Origin: Syntrophales bacterium
GTDB taxonomy: Bacteria; Desulfobacterota; Syntrophia; Syntrophales; PHBD01
Assembly (NCBI GenBank): GCA_963668175.1
Contig: OY764159.1
Coordinates: forward strand, 576,001-640,000
Length of the DNA stretch: 64,000 bases
Direction: 5' to 3'
A program made the translations under genes and the position numbers. Shown here in pieces: positions 52,768 to 64,000 of the stretch; position 1 is the stretch's first letter; each line of letters begins with the position of its first letter. The notes below the pieces were generated by a model. It had not been told where the DNA came from, made no database searches, and saw only the letters and a list, made by a program, of their open reading frames with translations.

Positions 52768-54651
52768 ATGGCTATAATGAAGCAAATGTTAATCAATGCC
52801 GTTCATGCCGAACAAAAACGCATGGCGATCGTAGAAGACGGCAAACTCGTCGAGTTTAACATTCAGATGTCCGTGAAGGAGGCGATAACGGGCAATGTCT
52901 ACAAAGGCGTCGTGCAAAAAGTGGAGCGCGGCCTGCAGGCCGCCTTCGTCAATTACGGAGGCAAAAGAGACGGTTTCCTGCCCCTGCGGGACGTCAGCAG
53001 CGAATATTTCACCGATCAGAAGGAAAACGGACGCCCGTCGCTGAAGGTCGGACAGGAGATCCTGGTCCAGATCGTCCGCGAGGTCGGGGAACGCAAAGGG
53101 GCGCTTCTCACCACGTACATATCCTTACCGGGCAGGTATCTTGTCTTGCTTCCCAACAAGCAGAGCAGCGGGATCTCGAGAAAGATCGAAGACGAAGAGG
53201 ACAGAAAAAGACTCAAGAAACTCGTGGAACAGATCAGGGTCGATGAAGGCATCGGTTTTATTGTGCGGACGGCCGGAATGAGCCGTACCAAGCAGGAACT
53301 TTCCCGCGATTATCAAAACCTTTCCCGTCTGTGGCGCGAGATACAAAAGAGGGGCAAAAGCGTTCCCGCACCGGCCGCAATCTATCAGGAGAGCGATTTC
53401 GGCATTTGTTCTCTTCGGGATTACTATACATCGGAAATCAACGATATCCTTGTCGATGATTTGGAAACCTTTAAGAAAATGAGGGAATACTGCAAGGTCG
53501 TCGTTCCCAAGACCGCCAAGATTCTAAGGCTCTACAAGGAAAAAACCCCCATTTTCGATCAGAATCAACTGGAAGACCAGATCCGGATAATCTACCAGGA
53601 ACAGGTAGAGTTGCGCTCCGGCGGGTACATCGTCATCAATCCTACGGAGGCCATGATAACGATCGACGTCAATTCCGGCCGCGCGTCCAATAAGCGGAAT
53701 GTGGAAGAAACGGCCTTCAAGACGAATCTGGAGGCCGCCGAGGAAATAGCACGACAGCTCAGGCTCCGGGACCTGGGAGGGCTCATCGTTATCGACTTCA
53801 TCGACATGATGGACCGTAAGCATGATACCGAGGTCGAGAAGGCTTTCAAGAAAGCCCTGAGTGTGGACAGGGCGAGGATCCAGTTATCCCGTATCTCCAA
53901 GTTCGGCATCCTCGAATTGTCGAGGCAGAAGAAGCAACCGACCATCCAGGAAATCAGTTATACGACCTGCCCTTTCTGCAACGGAAGCGGCGTCAGACCC
54001 TCTTTGGAATACACCGCATTGAGCGCCTTCAGAAAGATCGAGTCGCAGGTCGTCAAGGGATTGTATTCGTCCTTCAACGTCAGTCTCCCTTATGAAGTGG
54101 CCGATTATCTCCTGAATCAGAAGCGTGCCGAGCTCATCAAACTGGAAACGACCTATGACATGACGATCCATCTTACCGGCAGCCCCGATATCCCCTGGGA
54201 TATGCTGAAGATGGAATCGATCGGACGTGCCGCCGTCTCGGATCTGCCAGAACCCGCACACAGGGAATCCAGACAAGCGAACGCAAGTCGGGGGGCGTTA
54301 AAATCCCAGGATGTTTCCGCCGGCAATATCGAAGAAACCCCTGTAACGGAGCCGGGGAAAAAGAAACACCGCCGGCGTTCCCGAGGGCGGAGAAAGAAGG
54401 CGTCGGAGAAGACGGCGGATTCTAGACAGGCCGCAACTGGTGATCAATCCTGGGAAGAGTACGATGAGAGCATCAATTACCGGTCGTTCCATCAGCGCAC
54501 CGGATTGTCCGACAGTCCTTACGCCAGTGTCGCCACGGATGCCTATGCGGGAGCGGATGAGGGTGATGACTCGCCCCTCCGCAGCGAGGCCGACGATCCG
54601 GCCAAAGGAGCCACCAGGCAGGTCGAGGTCCTCAACATTTTTGATAAATAA
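52768..54651 (+). CDS. Ribonuclease E/G family
   Basis: S1 domain, LPGRYLVL, IDVNSG, RLRDLGGLIVIDFIDM, CPFC Zn-link, Arg/Lys-rich disordered tail. Confidence 0.94.
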   Translation: MAIMKQMLINAVHAEQKRMAIVEDGKLVEFNIQMSVKEAITGNVYKGVVQKVERGLQAAFVNYGGKRDGFLPLRDVSSEYFTDQKENGRPSLKVGQEILVQIVREVGERKGALLTTYISLPGRYLVLLPNKQSSGISRKIEDEEDRKRLKKLVEQIRVDEGIGFIVRTAGMSRTKQELSRDYQNLSRLWREIQKRGKSVPAPAAIYQESDFGICSLRDYYTSEINDILVDDLETFKKMREYCKVVVPKTAKILRLYKEKTPIFDQNQLEDQIRIIYQEQVELRSGGYIVINPTEAMITIDVNSGRASNKRNVEETAFKTNLEAAEEIARQLRLRDLGGLIVIDFIDMMDRKHDTEVEKAFKKALSVDRARIQLSRISKFGILELSRQKKQPTIQEISYTTCPFCNGSGVRPSLEYTALSAFRKIESQVVKGLYSSFNVSLPYEVADYLLNQKRAELIKLETTYDMTIHLTGSPDIPWDMLKMESIGRAAVSDLPEPAHRESRQANASRGALKSQDVSAGNIEETPVTEPGKKKHRRRSRGRRKKASEKTADSRQAATGDQSWEEYDESINYRSFHQRTGLSDSPYASVATDAYAGADEGDDSPLRSEADDPAKGATRQVEVLNIFDK

Positions 54652-54657
54652 CGTGGT

Positions 54658-54696
54658 GGACCGGGAGCGCCGGCCTGGCGTCCCCGGTCCCTTTTT
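54658..54696 (+). terminator. Intrinsic terminator between convergent RNase E/G and proC
   Basis: GGACCGGG..CGCC/GGCG..CCCGGTCC then CTTTTT. Confidence 0.8.
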
Positions 54697-54698
54697 GC

Positions 54699-55514
54699 TC
54701 ACTTGCCGCCCAACTCCCTTGATCTTAACGTCGCGGCTTCCACGGCCGCCATCAACGTCGCCCGGATCTTACCCTCCTCCAGGGCCTTGATCCCGGCAAT
54801 GGTCGTCCCTGCCGGCGACGTCACCATGTCCTTCAGTTCACCGGGATGCTTACGGCTTTCCAGAAAAAGCTTGGCGGAACCGAAGATCGTCCGTGCGGAA
54901 AGTTCAAGGGCGATATCCCTGCCGAGACCCATACGCACGCCTCCGTCCGACAGGGCCTCGATCATGATGAAAACATAGGCAGGACCGCTGCCGCTCAATC
55001 CCGTAACCGTATCCAGGAGATCTTCCGGAACGACGACGGAGGAACCGACGGCGTCGAAAATACTGCGGGCCGCCGCCAGGTCCTTGTCCGTGGCGTTTGT
55101 GCCTTTTGCCAATGCGGAGATGCCGGCGCTGACGAGGGCCGGAGTATTCGGCATGGTTCTTATGACGCGGACGTTTTTCTGCAGGCGTTCTTCGAGGAAC
55201 CTGATGGGAATGCCCGCGGCAATGGATATGACGATCTTGGTCTTGTCCAGCTCCGGAGAAATCTGGCGGAGCACGGCATCCATGCTTTGCGGTTTGACAG
55301 CCAGAATGACGATATGACACTCCCGGCACAGCTTCAGGTTGTCGGATAGCGTCCGGACGCCGTAAAGATCCCGGAGTTCGTCGAGCCGGGCCGGAGCGAT
55401 ATCTGAAACCGTAATATCCGATGCAGGGACGACCCGATTGGCGATCAGGCCTCCGATAAGCGCCCCGCCCATTTTGCCGCCGCCTATCATACCGATCTTC
55501 TTGCCTTTTATCAT
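54699..55514 (-). CDS. proC: Pyrroline-5-carboxylate reductase
   Basis: IGGGKMG, AVKPQ, RTMPNTP, SGSGPAY, VTSPAGTT. ATG 55514 follows AGGAGG. Confidence 0.96.
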   Translation of the reverse strand: MIKGKKIGMIGGGKMGGALIGGLIANRVVPASDITVSDIAPARLDELRDLYGVRTLSDNLKLCRECHIVILAVKPQSMDAVLRQISPELDKTKIVISIAAGIPIRFLEERLQKNVRVIRTMPNTPALVSAGISALAKGTNATDKDLAAARSIFDAVGSSVVVPEDLLDTVTGLSGSGPAYVFIMIEALSDGGVRMGLGRDIALELSARTIFGSAKLFLESRKHPGELKDMVTSPAGTTIAGIKALEEGKIRATLMAAVEAATLRSRELGGK

Positions 55515-55797
55515 GTCATGCCTCCTTTTGGTCATTGCCGATCGTCCTGAAAGTTCATGAACGAAAAAGCCCGCCGTTGTTTTCTGCCGGTGGATAGCGA
55601 TGTATGTCATTGAATTTGCTCTTGTGTCAACTGCTTTTTTCTCATTTTCCAGCGTGCGGTTTGCTGTTGAGCGGCCGGATACACGGAAATCACGAACCCG
55701 CATTCATACTATCGTGCGAACCGGACGGCCGCATGGCATCACGCCGTCCGGAAATGAAAGAGACCAGGCGAAACCGACGCGTACGTTTCGATTGTGC

Positions 55798-55826
55798 TTG
55801 ACAATAGAAGACCGTCACTTTAGATA
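55798..55826 (+). promoter_or_regulatory. Sigma-70-type promoter candidate of the gcvPB operon
   Basis: TTGACA-17 nt-TAGATA, 35 nt before the ATG. Confidence 0.45.
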
Positions 55827-55861
55827 CAAGACATGAGTAATGATTCCAACCTGGGGGATCG

Positions 55862-57352
55862 ATGAAACTCATTTATGAAAAGAGTCGCCCCGGCAGAACC
55901 GCCTCCGTTGTCCCGAAAAGCGACGTGCCGGATATCGATATCGGCAGTATCATCCGGCCGGAATACCTGCGGGCGGACATACCCCTGCCTGAAGTTTCCG
56001 AAATCGACCTGGTCCGTCACTACACCGGTCTCTCAAGAAGGAATTTCGGCGTCGATAACGGCTTCTATCCGCTCGGTTCCTGCACCATGAAGTACAATCC
56101 CAAAATCAACGAAGACGTAGCCGGCCTGGAGGGGTTCACCTCGCTTCATCCTTATGCGCCTGCCGAATTTATCCAGGGCAACCTGAAACTCATTTACGAA
56201 CTGCGCCGCTACTTGAGCGAGATATTCGGCATGGCGGATTTCACGCTGCAGCCGGCAGCCGGCGCCCAGGGAGAGCTCACCGGCATCATGGTCATCAAGA
56301 AATACTTCGCGAAGCATGGTGAAGAGCGCCATCGTCTCCTGATTCCGGATACGGCCCACGGCACCAACCCTGCGTCCGGGGCATTGTGCGGTTACAGGAC
56401 GGTTACGGTGAAATCGGGCCCGGAAGGAGGCGTCGACATTGCCCATTTGCGGGAACTGATGACGGAAGACGTAGCCGGGCTCATGTTGACCAACCCGAAC
56501 ACCCTGGGGCTTTTCGAGCGCAATATCGAGCAGGTTGCCGCTATCATCCACGGAAAAGGCGGTTTGCTCTATTGCGACGGAGCAAATGCCAATGCGTTCA
56601 TGGGAAAGACCAGACCGGGTGGCCTCGGGTTCGACGTTATCCAATTGAATCTTCATAAGACCTTTTCCACGCCTCACGGCGGCGGCGGTCCGGGAAGCGG
56701 TCCCCTCGGCGTCAAAGAAAAACTCGTACCTTTCCTGCCCATACCCCGGGTGGTTCAAAACGACCGTGTTTACGCCTGGGACGATGCCTATCCCGACAGC
56801 ATCGGACGGGTCAAAGCCTTTTACGGCAATTTTAACGTCATGGTGAAGGCGTATACCTATATCCGTTCGCTGGGTCCGGACGGCTTGCGGCACGTGAGCG
56901 AAACAGCCGTGTTGAATGCCAATTATGTCGAGGCAAGACTGAAACCCTGGTTCGATCTTCCCTATGATCGTCCCTGCATGCACGAATGCGTCTTTTCCGG
57001 TTCACGCCAGGTCAGGGAATCGGGCGTCAATACGCTGGATATGGCCAAACGCCTTCTCGATTACGGTTTTCATCCTCCCACCATCTATTTCCCGCTGATT
57101 GTGCCCGAGGCACTCATGATCGAGCCCGGCGAAACGGAAAGCAAAGAAACCCTCGACGACTTCTGCAATGCCATGATTGCCATCGCCGGGGAGGCAAAGG
57201 ATAACCCCGAGCTTGTCAAATCTGCGCCGCTGACGACGCCGGTGCAAAGACTTGACGAGGTCAAAGCCGCGCGGGAACCGGATGTTTGCTGGCGCAGTCC
57301 GAGATCCGGAGATTCACGCCCAACAGAGGTCATCCATGAAAAAACTGATTGA
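55862..57352 (+). CDS. gcvPB: Glycine dehydrogenase (decarboxylating) subunit 2
   Basis: [30 protein letters not shown] lysine motif [16 protein letters not shown]. Confidence 0.95.
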
Positions 57353-59150
57353 TACCCCCAAAGAAATTCTGGTCAAGAAGCTGTGGGACGCCGATCCGCG
57401 AATCTTCAAGATGCTTAGGGATTCCAAGCATGTGGAAGAAGCAAGGCACCTGCTTTTCGACTATTTCAATTACCTGGACCGTTCCCTGTTCAATATGAAG
57501 CCCGACACCTTTTTCGCCAAGATGAACATCGTCGAGAAACGGAACGCCAAGGAATGCATACGGGTCTTCTCCAATACGATAAGAACCGAAAATGAATATC
57601 TGACCAAAGCCTCCCCCCTGCAGCTTCTCTGCGATCTGGCCCAGGAAGTGCCCGGGGCCTTGGAACGCGTCACGGAGGCCTTCCTCTGCGAGTATATAGC
57701 GTTCTTCTACGGCATCACGGGGAAGGCCGGGAAGCACGAAAAAAGCCAGGATCTCTTTCATATGAAGGACGGCAGACAGGCGGCGATCATCCGTTCCAAA
57801 CAGCTCGACGAATATGCGGCCCTGATCCGAAAATATATCCGCCGTTATAAAACAGGTCTGCAGCGCGGCATCGTCAAGGAAAGGGAAGCCTTAAAAACGA
57901 AGATTCTTGAGCACTTCGGCGGAAACGAAGCGGACTGGCAGGACTATATGTGGCATTATAAGCACATCATCAAGGATCTGAACACCCTGTCGTCCCTTGT
58001 CCATTTGGAGAAAGACGAGCGGGAAGGCCTTCAATGCGCCAAACAGCAAGGCATCCCTTTTGAAATCACGCCGTATTACCTGTCCCTGTTCCACGCCGAA
58101 GGCCGGACGGACTATGACCGCCAGATACGCGCCCAGGTCATTCCCAGTGTCCGGTATTGCACAAGTGTGGCGGAAAGCAGAACAAAAGGGATCGACATGG
58201 ATTTCATGGGCGAGAAATCGACGAGCCCCATCGACGGCATCACCCGCCGGTACCCGGAGATTGTGATCCTCAAGCCCTACCATTCGTGTCCGCAAATCTG
58301 CGTCTATTGCCAGCGCAACTGGGAAATCAAATGCATGGACGACGAAGTGCAGATGAGCCGGGCGAAGGTGAAGGCCGCCATCGCCTGGATCAAGGATCAT
58401 GACAGTATCACGGAGGTCCTGATTACCGGGGGAGACCCCCTGACCTTAAAGAACGACTACCTGGAATGGCTGATCGGGGAAGTGGCCGCCATTGATCATA
58501 TCCAGAGAATCAGGATAGGAACGCGGGTCCCGGTAACGGTGCCCTGCCGTATCAATGAAGGTTTTCTCGACATCTTGAAGAAGTACCATCAGTGGGGAAA
58601 GCGGGAAATCGCCATCGTCACCCACTTCGAACATGCCATGGAAGTCACTCCCGAGGCCGTGAAGGCAATCGAAAGCCTGAAAAAGATCGGGATCAATATT
58701 TACAATCAGCAGGTTTTCACCTATTACAACAGCCGTCGTTTTGAAACGTCTCTTCTCAGGAAGGTGCTCAAGGTCTCGGGAGTCGATCCCTACTATTCCT
58801 TCAGCAGCAAGGGAAAAGAGGAAACGATCGATTTCCGTGTCCCTATCGCCAGGATCGAACAGGAAAGGGTGGAGGAAGCCCGGCTGCAGCCTGGGTTGGA
58901 GCGGACGGACGAACCGGTCTTCAACCTGCCCCGCCTCGGCAAATCCTATCTTCGGGCCTGGCAGGATCACGAAGTCATCATGGTCCTGCCCGACGGCCGC
59001 CGGGTCTACCGTTTCTATTCCTGGGAGGTCAGGCTCGTCACGGCGCTGGAATATCTGCATGCCGATGTTTCGATCTACGACTACCTGAAGCGGCTGGAGG
59101 CCGACGGCGAGAATCTGTCCGATTACACCACCATTTGGTATTATTTCTAA
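57336..59150 (+). CDS. KamA-family radical SAM aminomutase with long N-terminal extension
   Basis: [46 protein letters not shown]. Confidence 0.88.
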
Positions 59151-60056
59151 ATGGGTATCGATTCGGAACATGCCTCCATGCACCGGCGCAAACCGGATTG
59201 GCTCAAAGTCCGATTGCCGGGAGGCCCCGGCAGGGCGCGGGTGAAGGCCGTCCTCGATCGGCAGCGGCTGCATTCCATCTGCCAGGAAGCACGCTGTCCC
59301 AATATGGCCGAGTGTTTCCGGGAAGGGACCGCGACATTCCTGATTATGGGAAATGTCTGCAGCCGGCACTGTCTTTACTGCAACGTCATCCACGGGCGGC
59401 CGGCGGCATTGGACGAAAATGAGACGGACCGGCTGGCGGATGCCGTTGCTGCCCTCGATTTGAAGTATGCCGTTATAACATCGGTCACAAGAGACGATCT
59501 GCCGGACGGCGGCGCTGCCGTCTTCGTTAGGGCCATCGCGGCTTTGCGGGAACGGGTTCCGGGCTGCCGCGTGGAGGTACTCGTCCCCGACTTTCAGGGG
59601 AACGACGAGGCCCTCAAGCAGGTCCTGGATGCAGGGCCCGCTGTCCTCAACCACAACATGGAGGTTGTACCCGGCCTCTTTTCCCGCCTCCGTCCCCAGG
59701 GCCGTTACGACGTTTCCCTGGGCGTCATCCGGCATGCCGCGCAGGACGGCGGTGTCGCCGTCAAATCGGGTTTCATGGTCGGCTTGGGGGAATCCCTCCG
59801 GGATATCAGGGGTCTATTGAAAGATCTGCGCGGGGCGGGCTGCGGACATGTAACCGTCGGGCAATATCTGCAGCCGACGCGGGATCACTATCCGGTCCAG
59901 AAGTATTATCACCCTGACGAGTTCGAAGCGATCAGGAAATTAGCAGAAGGAATGGGCTTCGGCCGCGTTGAGGCGGGGCCGTTGGTGCGCAGTTCCTATC
60001 ACGCCGCCCGGGCCTATCCGGATGGTAGATCGCAACACGTCATGGAACATGACTAA
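59151..60056 (+). CDS. lipA: Lipoyl synthase
   Basis: KPDWLK, CQEARCPNMAEC, CSRHCLYC, TSVTRDDL, RSSYHA. Confidence 0.96.
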   Translation: MGIDSEHASMHRRKPDWLKVRLPGGPGRARVKAVLDRQRLHSICQEARCPNMAECFREGTATFLIMGNVCSRHCLYCNVIHGRPAALDENETDRLADAVAALDLKYAVITSVTRDDLPDGGAAVFVRAIAALRERVPGCRVEVLVPDFQGNDEALKQVLDAGPAVLNHNMEVVPGLFSRLRPQGRYDVSLGVIRHAAQDGGVAVKSGFMVGLGESLRDIRGLLKDLRGAGCGHVTVGQYLQPTRDHYPVQKYYHPDEFEAIRKLAEGMGFGRVEAGPLVRSSYHAARAYPDGRSQHVMEHD

Positions 60057-60078
60057 AGCAATTTAAGGAGGAGGGAAG

Positions 60079-61434
60079 GTGCCGGAGAAATACGATGTCG
60101 TGATCATCGGGGGAGGGCCCGGCGGCCATGCCGCCGCCGTTCATTCGGCGCGTGACGGCGCCAGGGCCGCCATTATTGAAAACAGGGGCTGGGGCGGTAC
60201 ATGCACCCACCGCGGCTGCATTCCAACGAAGGCCCTTTTGACGTGCAGCCATCAATATACCGGTCTGTCCCGTTTGAAAAGATTCGGTGTCGCCGCAACG
60301 GGGACATCGTTCGATTTTTCCGCCATGAAGAGACATCAGGCCCAACTTGTCAGGATGGCGGCCGTGGGAGTCGAAAAGCAGCTTAAGGATACCGGCGTCG
60401 TACACATGATCGGACGGGCCGCCATGCTATCGCCTGATGAAGTTCTGTATCAGTCGGCCGACGGCAAGGAAGACCGGTTGCAGACGGATAGAATCGTTGT
60501 CGCCTGGGGTGCCGAGCCCCAGCTGCCGCCCGGCATCATCCTCTCCGACCGGGTGCTTACGTCCGACGGCATGCTGGCCCTGGATCGTCTGCCCGGCAAG
60601 GTGCTCATCATCGGCGGCAGCGTGATCGGGGTGGAGTTCGCCACTTTCCTTGCCGAACTGGGAGTGCAGGTGACACTCGTCGAACTGCTCGACCGTCTCC
60701 TGCCGGGGGAAGACGAGGATTTGAGCGAATTTGTGGCACAGATCATGGGACGCCTGGGAGTGGCCGTTCATACCGCCACTCGGATGAAGAAGATAACGGA
60801 GACGGCCGACGGCGTGCAGACGGAAGCGGAAGGGGCAAACGGAACGGCGTTCATCCTGCCGGCGGAGTGCATTCTCGTCTGTACGGGCAGAAAGCCCTGC
60901 CTCCATGAAGAGGAGCTCGCCGCCCTGGGCATCCAATACGACAGGAAGGGCATCGCCGTGGACGCTCAACAGCGGACGACCTGCGGGAACATCTTTGCGA
61001 TCGGCGACGTCACCGGCGGGATGATGCTTGCCCACCGCGCGGCGCAACAGGGCAAAGCCCTGGCAAGCCATCTCTTCGGAAGCGGTGCGGTTGCCTGCAG
61101 CGATGACGCGGTGCCCGCCGTTATCTACACGCATCCCAACGTCGCCCGGGTGGGTCTGACGGAGGCCGAGGCGGAACGGCAGGGATTGCGCATCGACGTA
61201 GTCCGTTCCGATTACGGGGCCAACATCATGGCCAGGGCGGAACTGCAAGGCCAGGGATTTGCCAAGCTCATATTCCACAAGAGGCGGCTGCTCGGCGCAT
61301 CGATTGCAGGCGAGCAGGCGGGAAATCTTATCGCCGCGCTGAGCCTGGCCGTCACCGCCGGTGTGAGTATCGATACGTGGAAATCGTGGATACTGCCCCA
61401 TCCGACGATTGCCGAAGTGATGGCGTATGATTAA
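60079..61434 (+). CDS. lpdA: Dihydrolipoyl dehydrogenase
   Basis: GGGPGG, GGTCTHRGCIPTK, MLAHRA, HPTIAE. AGGAGG RBS, GTG start. Confidence 0.87.
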   Translation: MPEKYDVVIIGGGPGGHAAAVHSARDGARAAIIENRGWGGTCTHRGCIPTKALLTCSHQYTGLSRLKRFGVAATGTSFDFSAMKRHQAQLVRMAAVGVEKQLKDTGVVHMIGRAAMLSPDEVLYQSADGKEDRLQTDRIVVAWGAEPQLPPGIILSDRVLTSDGMLALDRLPGKVLIIGGSVIGVEFATFLAELGVQVTLVELLDRLLPGEDEDLSEFVAQIMGRLGVAVHTATRMKKITETADGVQTEAEGANGTAFILPAECILVCTGRKPCLHEEELAALGIQYDRKGIAVDAQQRTTCGNIFAIGDVTGGMMLAHRAAQQGKALASHLFGSGAVACSDDAVPAVIYTHPNVARVGLTEAEAERQGLRIDVVRSDYGANIMARAELQGQGFAKLIFHKRRLLGASIAGEQAGNLIAALSLAVTAGVSIDTWKSWILPHPTIAEVMAYD

Positions 61435-61488
61435 ACGGCAACCGGCGGACCCGTTTTTGAGGAAGACGCGGTCTGCGCCATGGGGCGG

Positions 61489-61668
61489 CTAATCCGTTCG
61501 ATAGTCCGTGTCGGATTCCGCTTCCGCACGCTCCTTCTTCCGGTTGGCCATGCATTCACGGCACCAGATGGTATAGCCGCACTGCCCCTTGCAGTTTTCA
61601 AAATCGTCTTCTTCCTTCTTGATTTCCTTCCCGTCAGAGGATGGGTCGGGCCGTTCCGCCGGTGACAT
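61489..61668 (-). CDS. Small 59-aa protein with C-x3-C-x5-C-x2-C motif (not in ORF track)
   Basis: MSPAERPDPSSDGKEIKKEEDDFENCKGQCGYTIWCRECMANRKKERAEAESDTDYRTD. AGGAG 6 nt before the ATG. Confidence 0.65.
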   Translation of the reverse strand: MSPAERPDPSSDGKEIKKEEDDFENCKGQCGYTIWCRECMANRKKERAEAESDTDYRTD

Positions 61669-61677
61669 AAAACGCTC

Positions 61678-63465
61678 CTATCGGTACATGGCGTCGATTC
61701 GTTCCCGGTATTTCTGAAAAACGACGCGCCTTTTTAATTTCAACGTCGGGGTCAGGGTGCCGTTCTGCAGGGTGAAAGGCTCCGATAGAAAGATGAATCG
61801 CTTCGGGATCTCGTAACCGCCATATTTACCCTCGAGCGCGTGTGTGATTTCGCTCGCGAACAGCTGCCGGATATCGTTTCTTTGCAGGAGTGTATCCATA
61901 TCGACGGGCAGGTTATGTTTCTCGGCGTAGCGCTCCAGTGCAGACATGTCGGGAACGACCATGCAGATGTTGAACGGCCGGTTTTCTCCGTACACAACGG
62001 CCTGCTTGATCGAAGGCAGAAGCGAGATGTCTTCTTCCAATGCCGCAGGAAAAACAAATTTGCCGTTTTCCAGCTTATACTGCTCCTTAAGACGGCCGGT
62101 GATGTAAAGGTATCCGTCCTCGTCGAGACGGCCCCGGTCGCCGGTTCTCACGCCTCCGTCCGGGGTCATGACCTCTTTCGTCAGTTCGGGTTTATTGTGA
62201 TATCCCTTCATGACATTGGGGCCGTAAACGACGATTTCACCATCCGCCGCCCCTTCCTCGACGACCGAGCGGTCGATGATGAGCCGGACATTGTCTATCG
62301 CCCGGCCGACACTGCCAAGCCTGTGATCGGTTGGCGTGTTCATGGCGATACCCGGCGACATCTCCGTCATGCCGTAGCAGTCGTAGACGGGGATGCCGAT
62401 GTCGAAGAAGAAGAGAGAAATCTCAAGGTTCATCATCGCGCTTGCCGTTATCACCCCTTTGAGGCGTCCGCCGAACAATTCCCTGATTCTCCGGAACACG
62501 ATTTTGTCGGCCAAGGCGAACTTGAGGTTGGCCATGATGGAGAATTTTCCTTCCGCGGCCAGGCGACGTTTCTCTTTTCCCGCCTCAACGCCCATCACGA
62601 ACAGCGCTTTGGCCGGACCGCCCTTCTCATTTAATTTGCTCCAGAGGGTGGAATATATTCTGTTAAAGACGCGGGGTACGGCCAGGAAATACGTCGGCCT
62701 GACTTTTCCTAAATCGCCGAGCAGTGTGGCCGTACTCTCCATGAAGCCTATGGAACCTCCCATATTGATAAGTCCGCGCATCTCCATCTGGCCGTATGTG
62801 TGCGCCCAGGGCAGCAGGGAGAGCGTCCGGTCGTTTTCATTCATTTCGTGATAGCTCTGCACAAGGGCCTGCGTGTTGCTCGTCAGGTTCGCATGCGTCA
62901 GAAGCACACCTCTCGGGTCGTCCGTCGTCCCCGACGTATAGATGATAACGGCGACATCTTCCGCCGGCGGGTGAACGGAGGGGACAGGATTTTGTTCGCC
63001 GACGGTTTCCATGTCCGCCATAGTATCCTTTCCCGCACCATCGATCCGGATGATCTGCTGCAATGCAGGGATGCGGCTCGCGAACGCTTTGACCTGTTCC
63101 AAGATCTTCGGGTTGGCGACGAAAAGAAGTTTCACGCCGCTGTCCCTGATAATGTATTCCCAGAAATGCGGCAACTCGACTTCATACATGGGTACAAAGC
63201 ATCCTCCCAGGCCGAGGGTGGCGAAATGGGAGACCGCCCATTCCACGCGGTTGTTGGCGATGATACCGACGACATCGCCTTTCCCGATGCCGGCTTTGGC
63301 AAGTCCGCCGCGCAGATGGTCCACCCGTTTTGCCAAGTCAGCGTATGTGATCCATTGGTAGACACCCTGCTTGTCCTTGGTGCCGAAAAGAGGACGGCTG
63401 CTGAAGCGGCTAACGCTGTTTTCGAATGATTCTACAAGATTGTCTGGTTTGTTAAGCATACTCAT
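61678..63465 (-). CDS. Long-chain fatty acid-CoA ligase (FAA1 type)
   Basis: IIYTSGTT, YGMTE, RTGDRG, GRLKE, LTPTLKLKR. ATG 63465 follows AGGAG. Confidence 0.9.
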   Translation of the reverse strand: MSMLNKPDNLVESFENSVSRFSSRPLFGTKDKQGVYQWITYADLAKRVDHLRGGLAKAGIGKGDVVGIIANNRVEWAVSHFATLGLGGCFVPMYEVELPHFWEYIIRDSGVKLLFVANPKILEQVKAFASRIPALQQIIRIDGAGKDTMADMETVGEQNPVPSVHPPAEDVAVIIYTSGTTDDPRGVLLTHANLTSNTQALVQSYHEMNENDRTLSLLPWAHTYGQMEMRGLINMGGSIGFMESTATLLGDLGKVRPTYFLAVPRVFNRIYSTLWSKLNEKGGPAKALFVMGVEAGKEKRRLAAEGKFSIMANLKFALADKIVFRRIRELFGGRLKGVITASAMMNLEISLFFFDIGIPVYDCYGMTEMSPGIAMNTPTDHRLGSVGRAIDNVRLIIDRSVVEEGAADGEIVVYGPNVMKGYHNKPELTKEVMTPDGGVRTGDRGRLDEDGYLYITGRLKEQYKLENGKFVFPAALEEDISLLPSIKQAVVYGENRPFNICMVVPDMSALERYAEKHNLPVDMDTLLQRNDIRQLFASEITHALEGKYGGYEIPKRFIFLSEPFTLQNGTLTPTLKLKRRVVFQKYRERIDAMYR

Positions 63466-63606
63466 TTGTTTCTCCTGATATTGTAACAGACCGTTATGAT
63501 ATGAAGCGAAATGTTTCTCCACGGTCTTCTCACCAAATATTCAGTATACATGAATTGCCGTCCGGGGTCGCGGAAAAAGTTGTTCCGGTGTGATCGGGCC
63601 GCTTGA

Positions 63607-63999
63607 TTACTTAAGGACAAACAAAGACGCCTGCTCGCCTGCAACATAACCCGTCGAAAAGGCCGCCTGAAGGTTATAGCCCCCCGTGTCGGCATCGATG
63701 TCCATGACTTCGCCGGAAAAAAAGAGTCCGGAAATCAGACGTGAGGCCATGGTGCGGGGATCGATCTCTTTGAGGGAAACGCCTCCCGCCGTAACGATGG
63801 CCGACGACAGGGGGAGGGGCTGCTTCACGTTGAAGCTCAGCGATTTCATCTGTTGAACGATACCATCCCGCTGACTTCCGTTAATCTGATGTCCGGGGGT
63901 CTCGGGCGGTATTCCGGTCAGCGCGACGAATGGTTCAATCATCTTCCTGGGCAGGAGGCCCGAGAGGATTCTTTGATAGCTTCTCTTTCCGAATTGGTC
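63607..63999 (-). CDS. HI0933/BaiN family NAD(P)/FAD-dependent oxidoreductase, C-terminal part (truncated by window edge)
   Basis: VTAGGV, TMAS, GEVMD, TGGYNLQAAFSTG. Frame stays open to the window end. Confidence 0.9.
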   Translation of the reverse strand, partial: DQFGKRSYQRILSGLLPRKMIEPFVALTGIPPETPGHQINGSQRDGIVQQMKSLSFNVKQPLPLSSAIVTAGGVSLKEIDPRTMASRLISGLFFSGEVMDIDADTGGYNLQAAFSTGYVAGEQASLFVLK

Positions 64000-64000
64000 G

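Follow-up and report, generated by a model that had tools for sequence, protein, structure and literature searches.

What is a radical S-adenosylmethionine (SAM) aminomutase gene doing among glycine cleavage genes that appear to have lost most of their partners? The question is raised by a window of 64,000 nucleotides (nt) from a Syntrophales bacterium (G000:C1:576001-640000 of a 4.57-Mb single-contig genome), in which gcvPB, a KamA-family gene here called kamX, lipA, and lpdA follow each other on one strand. A preliminary description of the window offered two explanations: a dispersed glycine cleavage system, or an undescribed lipoate-dependent amino-acid pathway that pairs the mutase with the decarboxylase. 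We consider it likely that the four genes represent a rearranged gcv/lipoate operon with an inserted aminomutase, and that this enzyme, most likely converting L-glutamate to beta-glutamate, stands outside glycine-cleavage chemistry. The genes and the promoter candidate in front of them are listed below by window position, with lengths in amino acids (aa) and family scores in bits.

55862-57352, plus strand: gcvPB, glycine dehydrogenase (aminomethyl-transferring) subunit 2; 496 aa; NF003346 733.2 bits (cut-off 441); Pfam GcvP2_C
57336-59150, plus strand: kamX, KamA-family gene; 604 aa; ATG start; TIGR00238 308.1 bits (cut-off 199.2)
59151-60056, plus strand: lipA, lipoyl synthase; 301 aa; TIGR00510 326.7 bits (cut-off 310.25); NF009544 376 bits
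60079-61434, plus strand: lpdA, dihydrolipoyl dehydrogenase (L protein); 451 aa; GTG start; TIGR01350 420.5 bits (cut-off 408.8)
55798-55826, plus strand: weak sigma-70-like promoter candidate (TTGACA, 17-nt spacer, TAGATA), between proC (minus strand) and gcvPB

The gene order and close spacing of the preliminary description were reproduced when the open reading frames (ORFs) were read again. gcvPB and kamX overlap by 17 nt (57336-57352), the ATG of lipA begins on the base right after the kamX stop codon (0 nt), and 22 nt separate lipA from lpdA. The kamX ATG at 57336 is consistent with the starts of 24 aligned orthologues, and lpdA carries the Pfam domains Pyr_redox_2 and Pyr_redox_dim. The four genes form a probable single transcription unit, from which they would be co-transcribed.

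The window itself holds no gcvPA, gcvT, gcvH, or efp, as had been reported: none is present among the ORFs of 40239-64000, and family and tblastn searches of the whole genome place all four outside the window. The glycine cleavage genes among them were located as follows (genome positions in G000).

645275-645670, minus strand: gcvH (TIGR00527; the two genomic gcvH copies score 149 and 133, cut-off 116)
645693-646787, minus strand: gcvT (TIGR00528 380, cut-off 236)
4511032-4512363, minus strand: gcvPA (NF001696 606.4 bits, cut-off 364)
G000:C1:23369-24595 (locus L007:7370-8596): second gcvH and a lipoate-protein-ligase-like gene

The gcvH-gcvT pair lies 7.8-9.4 kb beyond lpdA, 5.3-6.8 kb past the end of the window, and on the opposite strand. 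gcvPA is solitary, about 687 kb from the gcvPB unit, and is flanked by genes for a cell-wall hydrolase and a heptose kinase. gcvPA, gcvT, and gcvPB (the latter a single tblastn match) each occur once in the genome, together with two copies of gcvH, three lipA-like genes including that of the unit, and several lpdA-like genes. All five components of the split-P glycine cleavage system are encoded, each above its curated cut-off. The system is complete but dispersed, and conventional, and GcvPB is a canonical P-protein beta subunit with its alpha partner encoded elsewhere in the genome. Its glycine-dependent activity is predicted from gene content: GcvPB and GcvPA would decarboxylate glycine onto lipoyl-GcvH, GcvT and GcvH would release ammonia and methylene-tetrahydrofolate, LpdA would reoxidise the lipoyl arm, and LipA would make the lipoyl group. 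The first of the two explanations, a dispersed system, is borne out by this gene content. A normal gcvT-gcvH-gcvPA block elsewhere had been named as something that would speak against an unusual pathway; the three genes do exist, but not as an intact block.

The remaining copies have surroundings of their own. The second gcvH is 43% identical to the first and lies directly upstream of the lipoate-ligase-like gene, which is followed by hisC; the two may be a dedicated lipoyl-relay pair. One further lipA-like gene (G000:C1:3530112-3530984, L148) is 49% identical and has one in-frame TGA; it may be a pseudogene or a selenoprotein gene. Another (G000:C1:1786279-1789227, L149) is 47% identical and is preceded by an lpdA-like gene and a gene with a LipB/LplA catalytic domain.

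How kamX came to stand between gcvPB and lipA was addressed by comparing gene order among relatives. Across 41 genomes of the same order, that of the window included, 18 encode a full-length kamX. In the 17 relatives among them, lipA is directly downstream in 14 and gcvPB directly upstream in 7, and 3 have neither. A scan of public genomes yielded 78 loci of the kamX family from Syntrophales metagenome-assembled genomes, Methanoperedens/ANME-2, Methanocella, Ignavibacteriales, Omnitrophota, Elusimicrobia, and others; 27 are at least 68% identical to kamX and 51 are more distant. Across Syntrophales, Methanoperedens/ANME-2, Methanocella, Ignavibacteriales, and others, identity within the family is 49-82%.

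In the close loci lipA follows kamX in 26 of 27, the sole exception having 126 nt of downstream sequence, and lpdA is found downstream in 17. gcvPB stands ahead of kamX in 21 of these loci: 17 have it no more than 300 nt away, and in the other 4 the distance is 4.7-6.6 kb. Of the six loci that lack it, four extend no farther than 616 nt upstream. Eleven of the 27 show the full gcvT-gcvH-gcvPA-gcvPB series upstream, which gives the order gcvT-gcvH-gcvPA-gcvPB-kamX-lipA-lpdA in close Syntrophales relatives. None of the 51 distant loci, which include a Syntrophales sister clade, Methanoperedens/ANME-2, Methanocella, Ignavibacteriales, Omnitrophota, and Elusimicrobia, has gcv, lipA, lpdA, or lplA in its fetched flanks, which in 28 of these loci are 5 kb or longer on either side. 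The preliminary description had taken a kamA-like gene unlinked to gcv genes in relatives as speaking against a special pathway; such separation is seen in the distant members and not in the close ones.

The same site was also inspected starting from lipA, in 29 relatives' genomes. kamX is directly upstream of lipA in 14 of them. In nine (G036, G015, G034, G035, G023, G040, G013, G028, and G014) gcvPB is directly upstream without kamX, in two (G021 and G024) it lies about 1.2 kb upstream, and four have other arrangements. In these nine, gcvPB, lipA, and lpdA are directly adjacent; G014 has this intact gcvPB-lipA junction although it does possess a kamX, at another genomic site.

An insertion of 4.7-6.6 kb separates gcvPB from kamX in one genus of the family to which the window's genome belongs (L059:3381-9705, also L054, L063, and L064). 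The insert of L059 carries genes for an ADP-forming acyl-CoA synthetase, for a 623-aa protein without a family match, and, on the opposite strand, for a CoA-transferase; at this locus lipA and lpdA are separated by multihaem cytochrome genes.

A FastTree phylogeny was made with 73 family members and, as outgroup, 7 distant long forms (80 rows in total), leaving out six loci with truncated matches (L056, L061, L062, L074, L084, and L101). The 24 kamX genes linked to gcv or lipA fall into a single 25-row clade (local support 98) together with L049, on whose short contig linkage cannot be judged. Its sister group is a Syntrophales clade of 12 rows, in which the gene has other neighbours. Because all gcv-linked copies form one clade, the linkage counts as one event, and because gcvPB-lipA-lpdA is a widespread arrangement among relatives, we infer that kamX was added to an ordinary gcv/lipoate operon as a lineage-specific insertion. 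It would have entered once, between gcvPB and lipA, in one Syntrophales sub-lineage and been inherited since. The association of kamX with gcv genes looks like the inheritance of this one insertion, not shared chemistry. The unit in the window would then be what rearrangement has left of the Syntrophales operon gcvT-gcvH-gcvPA-gcvPB-lipA-lpdA. An inversion is suggested because gcvT-gcvH point the opposite way downstream in the window's genome, and the arrangement fits an inversion with one breakpoint just ahead of the unit, upstream of gcvPB, after which gcvPA would have moved away. gcvPB is also the first gene of the unit in the nearest relative (L065, 82% identity).

The second part of the question concerns what kamX encodes. 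It scores below every curated equivalog cut-off, yet inside the KamA family: 244.5 bits for glutamate 2,3-aminomutase (TIGR04368, cut-off 650), 210.7 for lysine 2,3-aminomutase (TIGR03820, 525.4), 165.6 for arginine 2,3-aminomutase (600), and 131.5 for EpmB (TIGR03821, 369.3). Its only sequence match in the PDB is the lysine 2,3-aminomutase 2A5H (phmmer, E 1.2e-42), which is also the only Foldseek match of the kamX model at E ≤ 0.001 (E 3.5e-16, template-modelling score 0.64 on the target). The cysteines C318, C322, and C325 (CxxxCxxC) and K536 are invariant in 25 aligned family members, and K536 lines up with the lysine of GGGGK in lysine-type enzymes, the position of the lysine that holds pyridoxal phosphate (PLP). 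Over these 25 bacterial and archaeal members the mean column identity is 66%.

The substrate-side residues were compared in a 23-sequence alignment including five proteins scoring best with TIGR04368, three lysine-type proteins, and two paralogues from the same genome. The controls were P0192 (TIGR04368 693.1, above 650; its cluster, from Clostridia, is named glutamate 2,3-aminomutase) and P0225 (TIGR03820 638, above 525). R304, Q326, K492, and N530 of kamX, which its long relatives share, are the same four residues as in the glutamate-type proteins, and the lysine types have H, T, D, and D. K492 faces D293 of 2A5H in the phmmer alignment, N530 sits in the second aspartate column of the 23-sequence alignment, and R327, the arginine after the third cysteine, corresponds to R134. 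We take D293 and D330 of 2A5H to bind the epsilon-amino group of lysine and R134 its carboxylate. These residue roles, and a Lys/Asn signature of the glutamate enzyme, reportedly go back to Lepore et al. 2005 and Ruzicka and Frey 2007.

Similarity searches point the same way. In an exhaustive search of representatives, the glutamate-type P0192 (E 1.9e-50), to which kamX is 37% identical, ranks above the lysine-type P0225 (4e-37) among short forms. Residues 148-198 of kamX align with the N-terminal 50 positions of TIGR04368, a segment that the lysine-type paralogues do not have. Because its substrate-side residues match those of glutamate 2,3-aminomutase, kamX is most likely of the glutamate type, and probably encodes a long-form glutamate 2,3-aminomutase. 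As a radical-SAM, PLP-dependent 2,3-aminomutase of a long KamA branch, it would convert L-glutamate to beta-glutamate and take no part in glycine cleavage.

The protein is laid out as a helical bundle (1-130), long helices to about 195, a catalytic core (about 197-540), and a family-specific C-terminal tail. Residues 1-195 are predicted to be helical (predicted local distance difference test 81); the match to the KamA model sets in at residue 189, that to TIGR04368 at residue 148. The N-terminal extension has no Pfam match, and its best VIA-align hit has Z 5.2 (root-mean-square deviation 4.6, 85 aligned), the rest being generic long helices.

Several observations weigh against an inserted glutamate aminomutase without ties to its neighbours. 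By NCBI's rule kamX is not a member of TIGR04368, which the control P0192 clearly is. K492 is replaced by Q or M in 5 of the 25 aligned family members. In a smaller alternative MAFFT alignment the invariant D525/E526 stand opposite the second lysine-binding aspartate instead of N530, so the equivalence of N530 rests on the larger alignment. The AlphaFold model has low confidence over residues 487-547, which hold K492, N530, and K536. Finally, the pairing of kamX with lipA has outlasted both the rearrangements that displaced gcvT-gcvH and gcvPA and the 4.7-6.6 kb insertions between gcvPB and kamX in four loci; this persistence could reflect selection for co-expression with lipA.

Alternatively, kamX would be a true aminomutase acting on a different acidic or polar amino acid; 2-aminoadipate, glutamine, and compounds derived from glycine or serine are candidates, and the long branch would be a new substrate class. 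We hold this to be unlikely. It accommodates the missed TIGR04368 cut-off, the modest identity to P0192, and the variation of K492. Features that the family has to itself also fit, namely the invariant D525-E526 beside the PLP lysine, the distinct C-terminal tail, and an N-terminal domain of 145-190 aa without a fold match, as do neighbourhoods that differ between lineages. However, all four substrate-side positions are of the glutamate type and none is of the lysine type, and the nearest short-form relatives are glutamate-type as well; in addition, a long-form enzyme with an N-terminal extension has reportedly been shown to make beta-glutamate (Tunckanat et al. 2022).

Those neighbourhoods are varied. 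In nine loci of the Syntrophales sister clade, kamX lies 30-180 nt downstream of a gene for an Ord-like amine dehydrogenase (30-33 nt in eight, 180 nt in L073), which resembles 2,4-diaminopentanoate dehydrogenase (NF040740 270 bits, cut-off 400). At L069:4651-11812 the operon reads TAXI-TRAP binding protein, DUF1850 protein, fused DctM permease, Ord-like dehydrogenase, and kamX, and the same operon is found in L068, L070-L073, L075, L078, and L079. It may point to import of an amino acid, whose amino group would then be moved to the beta position and removed by oxidative deamination. With the L069 query the dehydrogenase was not found in the window's own genome, a result that is not proof of absence. 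A lysine-fermentation-like cluster is seen at L115:3993-14894, with KamA (LAM_C), a KamB-like reactivase, a MutS-domain protein, KamD, KamE, kamX, a class III aminotransferase, and an aldehyde dehydrogenase. In Methanoperedens BLZ2 (L097:4384-11809), kamX lies about 3 kb downstream of mcrG-mcrA, directly after a gene for a 719-aa B12-binding radical-SAM methyltransferase. The Methanoperedens-type loci L086, L087, L089, L095, and L103 have a second, lysine-type KamA gene (31-33% identical) 1.3-2.6 kb upstream. The neighbours of kamX in other lineages are unrelated. Because neighbourhoods differ between lineages, kamX fits a free-standing amino-acid aminomutase that has been recruited into different contexts.

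The glutamate reading can also be kept with the linkage taken as functional. Formation of beta-glutamate would then be co-expressed with glycine cleavage and lipoylation, and the long KamA branch would feed an undescribed breakdown of glutamate via beta-glutamate. Such a route is hinted at because the sister clade couples kamX to the TAXI-TRAP importer and the Ord-like dehydrogenase, which would give 3-oxoglutarate. We think this wider proposal quite unlikely.

Very unlikely, in our judgement, is a direct role in lipoate metabolism, in which kamX would join GcvPB, LipA, and LpdA in an undescribed lipoate-dependent pathway or support lipoylation or glycine cleavage. The tight packing on both sides of kamX invites such a role, as does its adjacency to lipA in nearly all close loci, even where gcvPB is displaced, and in 14 of 17 relatives with a full-length copy. 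It is countered by the single clade and single event behind all gcv-linked copies, by the lack of any such neighbour in the fetched flanks of the distant loci, by the nine relatives, G014 among them, that keep gcvPB-lipA-lpdA intact without kamX at this site, and by a canonical GcvPB whose partners GcvPA, GcvT, and GcvH are all present. The lipoate-dependent alternative of the preliminary description is not supported.

That kamX is a lysine 2,3-aminomutase, for modification of elongation factor P or synthesis of beta-lysine as an osmolyte, is extremely improbable: relatives do bear that name in databases and 2A5H is the only solved relative, but the TIGR03820 and EpmB scores fall far short, both lysine-binding aspartate columns are replaced (K492, N530), kamX has neither the score nor the efp/epmA linkage of EpmB, and the genome holds two other KamA paralogues, both lysine-type, one of which (364 aa, G000 457661-458755) has efp directly downstream.

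A 437-aa lysine-type KamA (TIGR03820 487, cut-off 525) is encoded at L146:148-2598 (G000:C1:1145647-1148097), beside a D-Ala-D-Ala-ligase-like ATP-grasp gene; the two may form a beta-lysine ligation module.

If kamX is an inserted glutamate aminomutase, a lone gcvPB beside a radical-SAM mutase was a tempting false lead, and the locus would belong to an ordinary, scattered glycine cleavage system with a passenger gene. kamX stands for an aminomutase family that is very widespread and highly conserved; databases label it 'lysine 2,3-aminomutase', although its active-site residues point to glutamate. Should syntrophs indeed make beta-glutamate, this would bear on osmoadaptation or amino-acid catabolism. 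A preprint (bioRxiv 10.1101/2025.11.21.689712) states that bacteria use glutamate 2,3-aminomutase to ferment glutamate and archaea use it to make osmolytes, and another paper counts eam (beta-glutamate) among osmoprotectant genes (PMC9337991). The consulted part of PMC9605863, from the beta-glutamate and syntroph literature, does not concern kamX, and our literature search returned no paper linking an aminomutase with glycine cleavage genes in Syntrophus.

Regulatory signals around the unit are few. The preliminary description had assigned gcvPB a promoter candidate of its own. The TTGACA hexamer is present (55798-55803), but the promoter is a weak candidate only, because its TAGATA -10 hexamer has 3 of 6 consensus matches and the site is absent from the list of a consensus promoter scan, which gave 3 promoter-like sites against 2.5 expected from shuffles. 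Three terminator-like sites were found against 6.9 expected, none of them in an intergenic gap of the plus strand. No Rfam match, such as a glycine riboswitch, was obtained in window positions 54000-64000 (E ≤ 0.1), and the loci around gcvT-gcvH, gcvPA, and the second gcvH (L005-L007) gave no riboswitch and one tRNA only.

Upstream of gcvPB lie the divergent proC and genes for an RNase E/G and a Sua5/YrdC protein, and an acyl-CoA ligase gene converges on lpdA from downstream. The minus strand of this side (window 61678-64000, continuing in L005:682-6427) encodes two acyl-CoA ligases, one of 614 aa and one of 595 aa. After each comes a gene for a flavoprotein of the aminoacetone oxidase family; one of these is full-length at 449 aa, and the other is a C-terminal fragment of 171 aa. 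The pairs look like a partial tandem duplication.

The locus can be set against four known systems. Compared to the split-P glycine cleavage system (NF003346, NF001696, TIGR00528, TIGR00527, TIGR01350), the full component set is present and gcvPB, lipA, and lpdA are neighbours as in other Syntrophales. Unlike that system, the genes are spread over three places, with gcvPA solitary and gcvT-gcvH reversed 7.8 kb downstream, and an unrelated aminomutase gene lies inside the operon. The lysine 2,3-aminomutase 2A5H of Clostridium subterminale shares fold, cofactor set, and the R327/R134 arginine with kamX, but kamX has K492 at D293, N530 at the second aspartate, and 604 instead of 416 residues.

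A KamA homologue of Methanococcus maripaludis C7 reportedly makes beta-glutamate, is extended at its N terminus by about 160 residues, and has binding residues of the glutamate type (Tunckanat et al., Biochemistry, 2022). Our literature search did not find 'MmarC7_1783', and no named Methanococcus record was among the 30 clusters looked up. By this description, kamX would resemble the archaeal long form in its extension and its glutamate-type residues; it differs in being bacterial and in lying in a gcv/lipA operon rather than in a known osmolyte context. Compared to the Clostridia-type glutamate 2,3-aminomutase (Eam, TIGR04368), kamX has about 145 extra N-terminal residues, another C-terminal tail, and the low identity to P0192 given above. 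Like this enzyme, its best short-form relative, it has the CxxxCxxC motif, the PLP lysine, the common 50-residue N-terminal segment, and Arg, Gln, Lys, and Asn at the four substrate-side positions.

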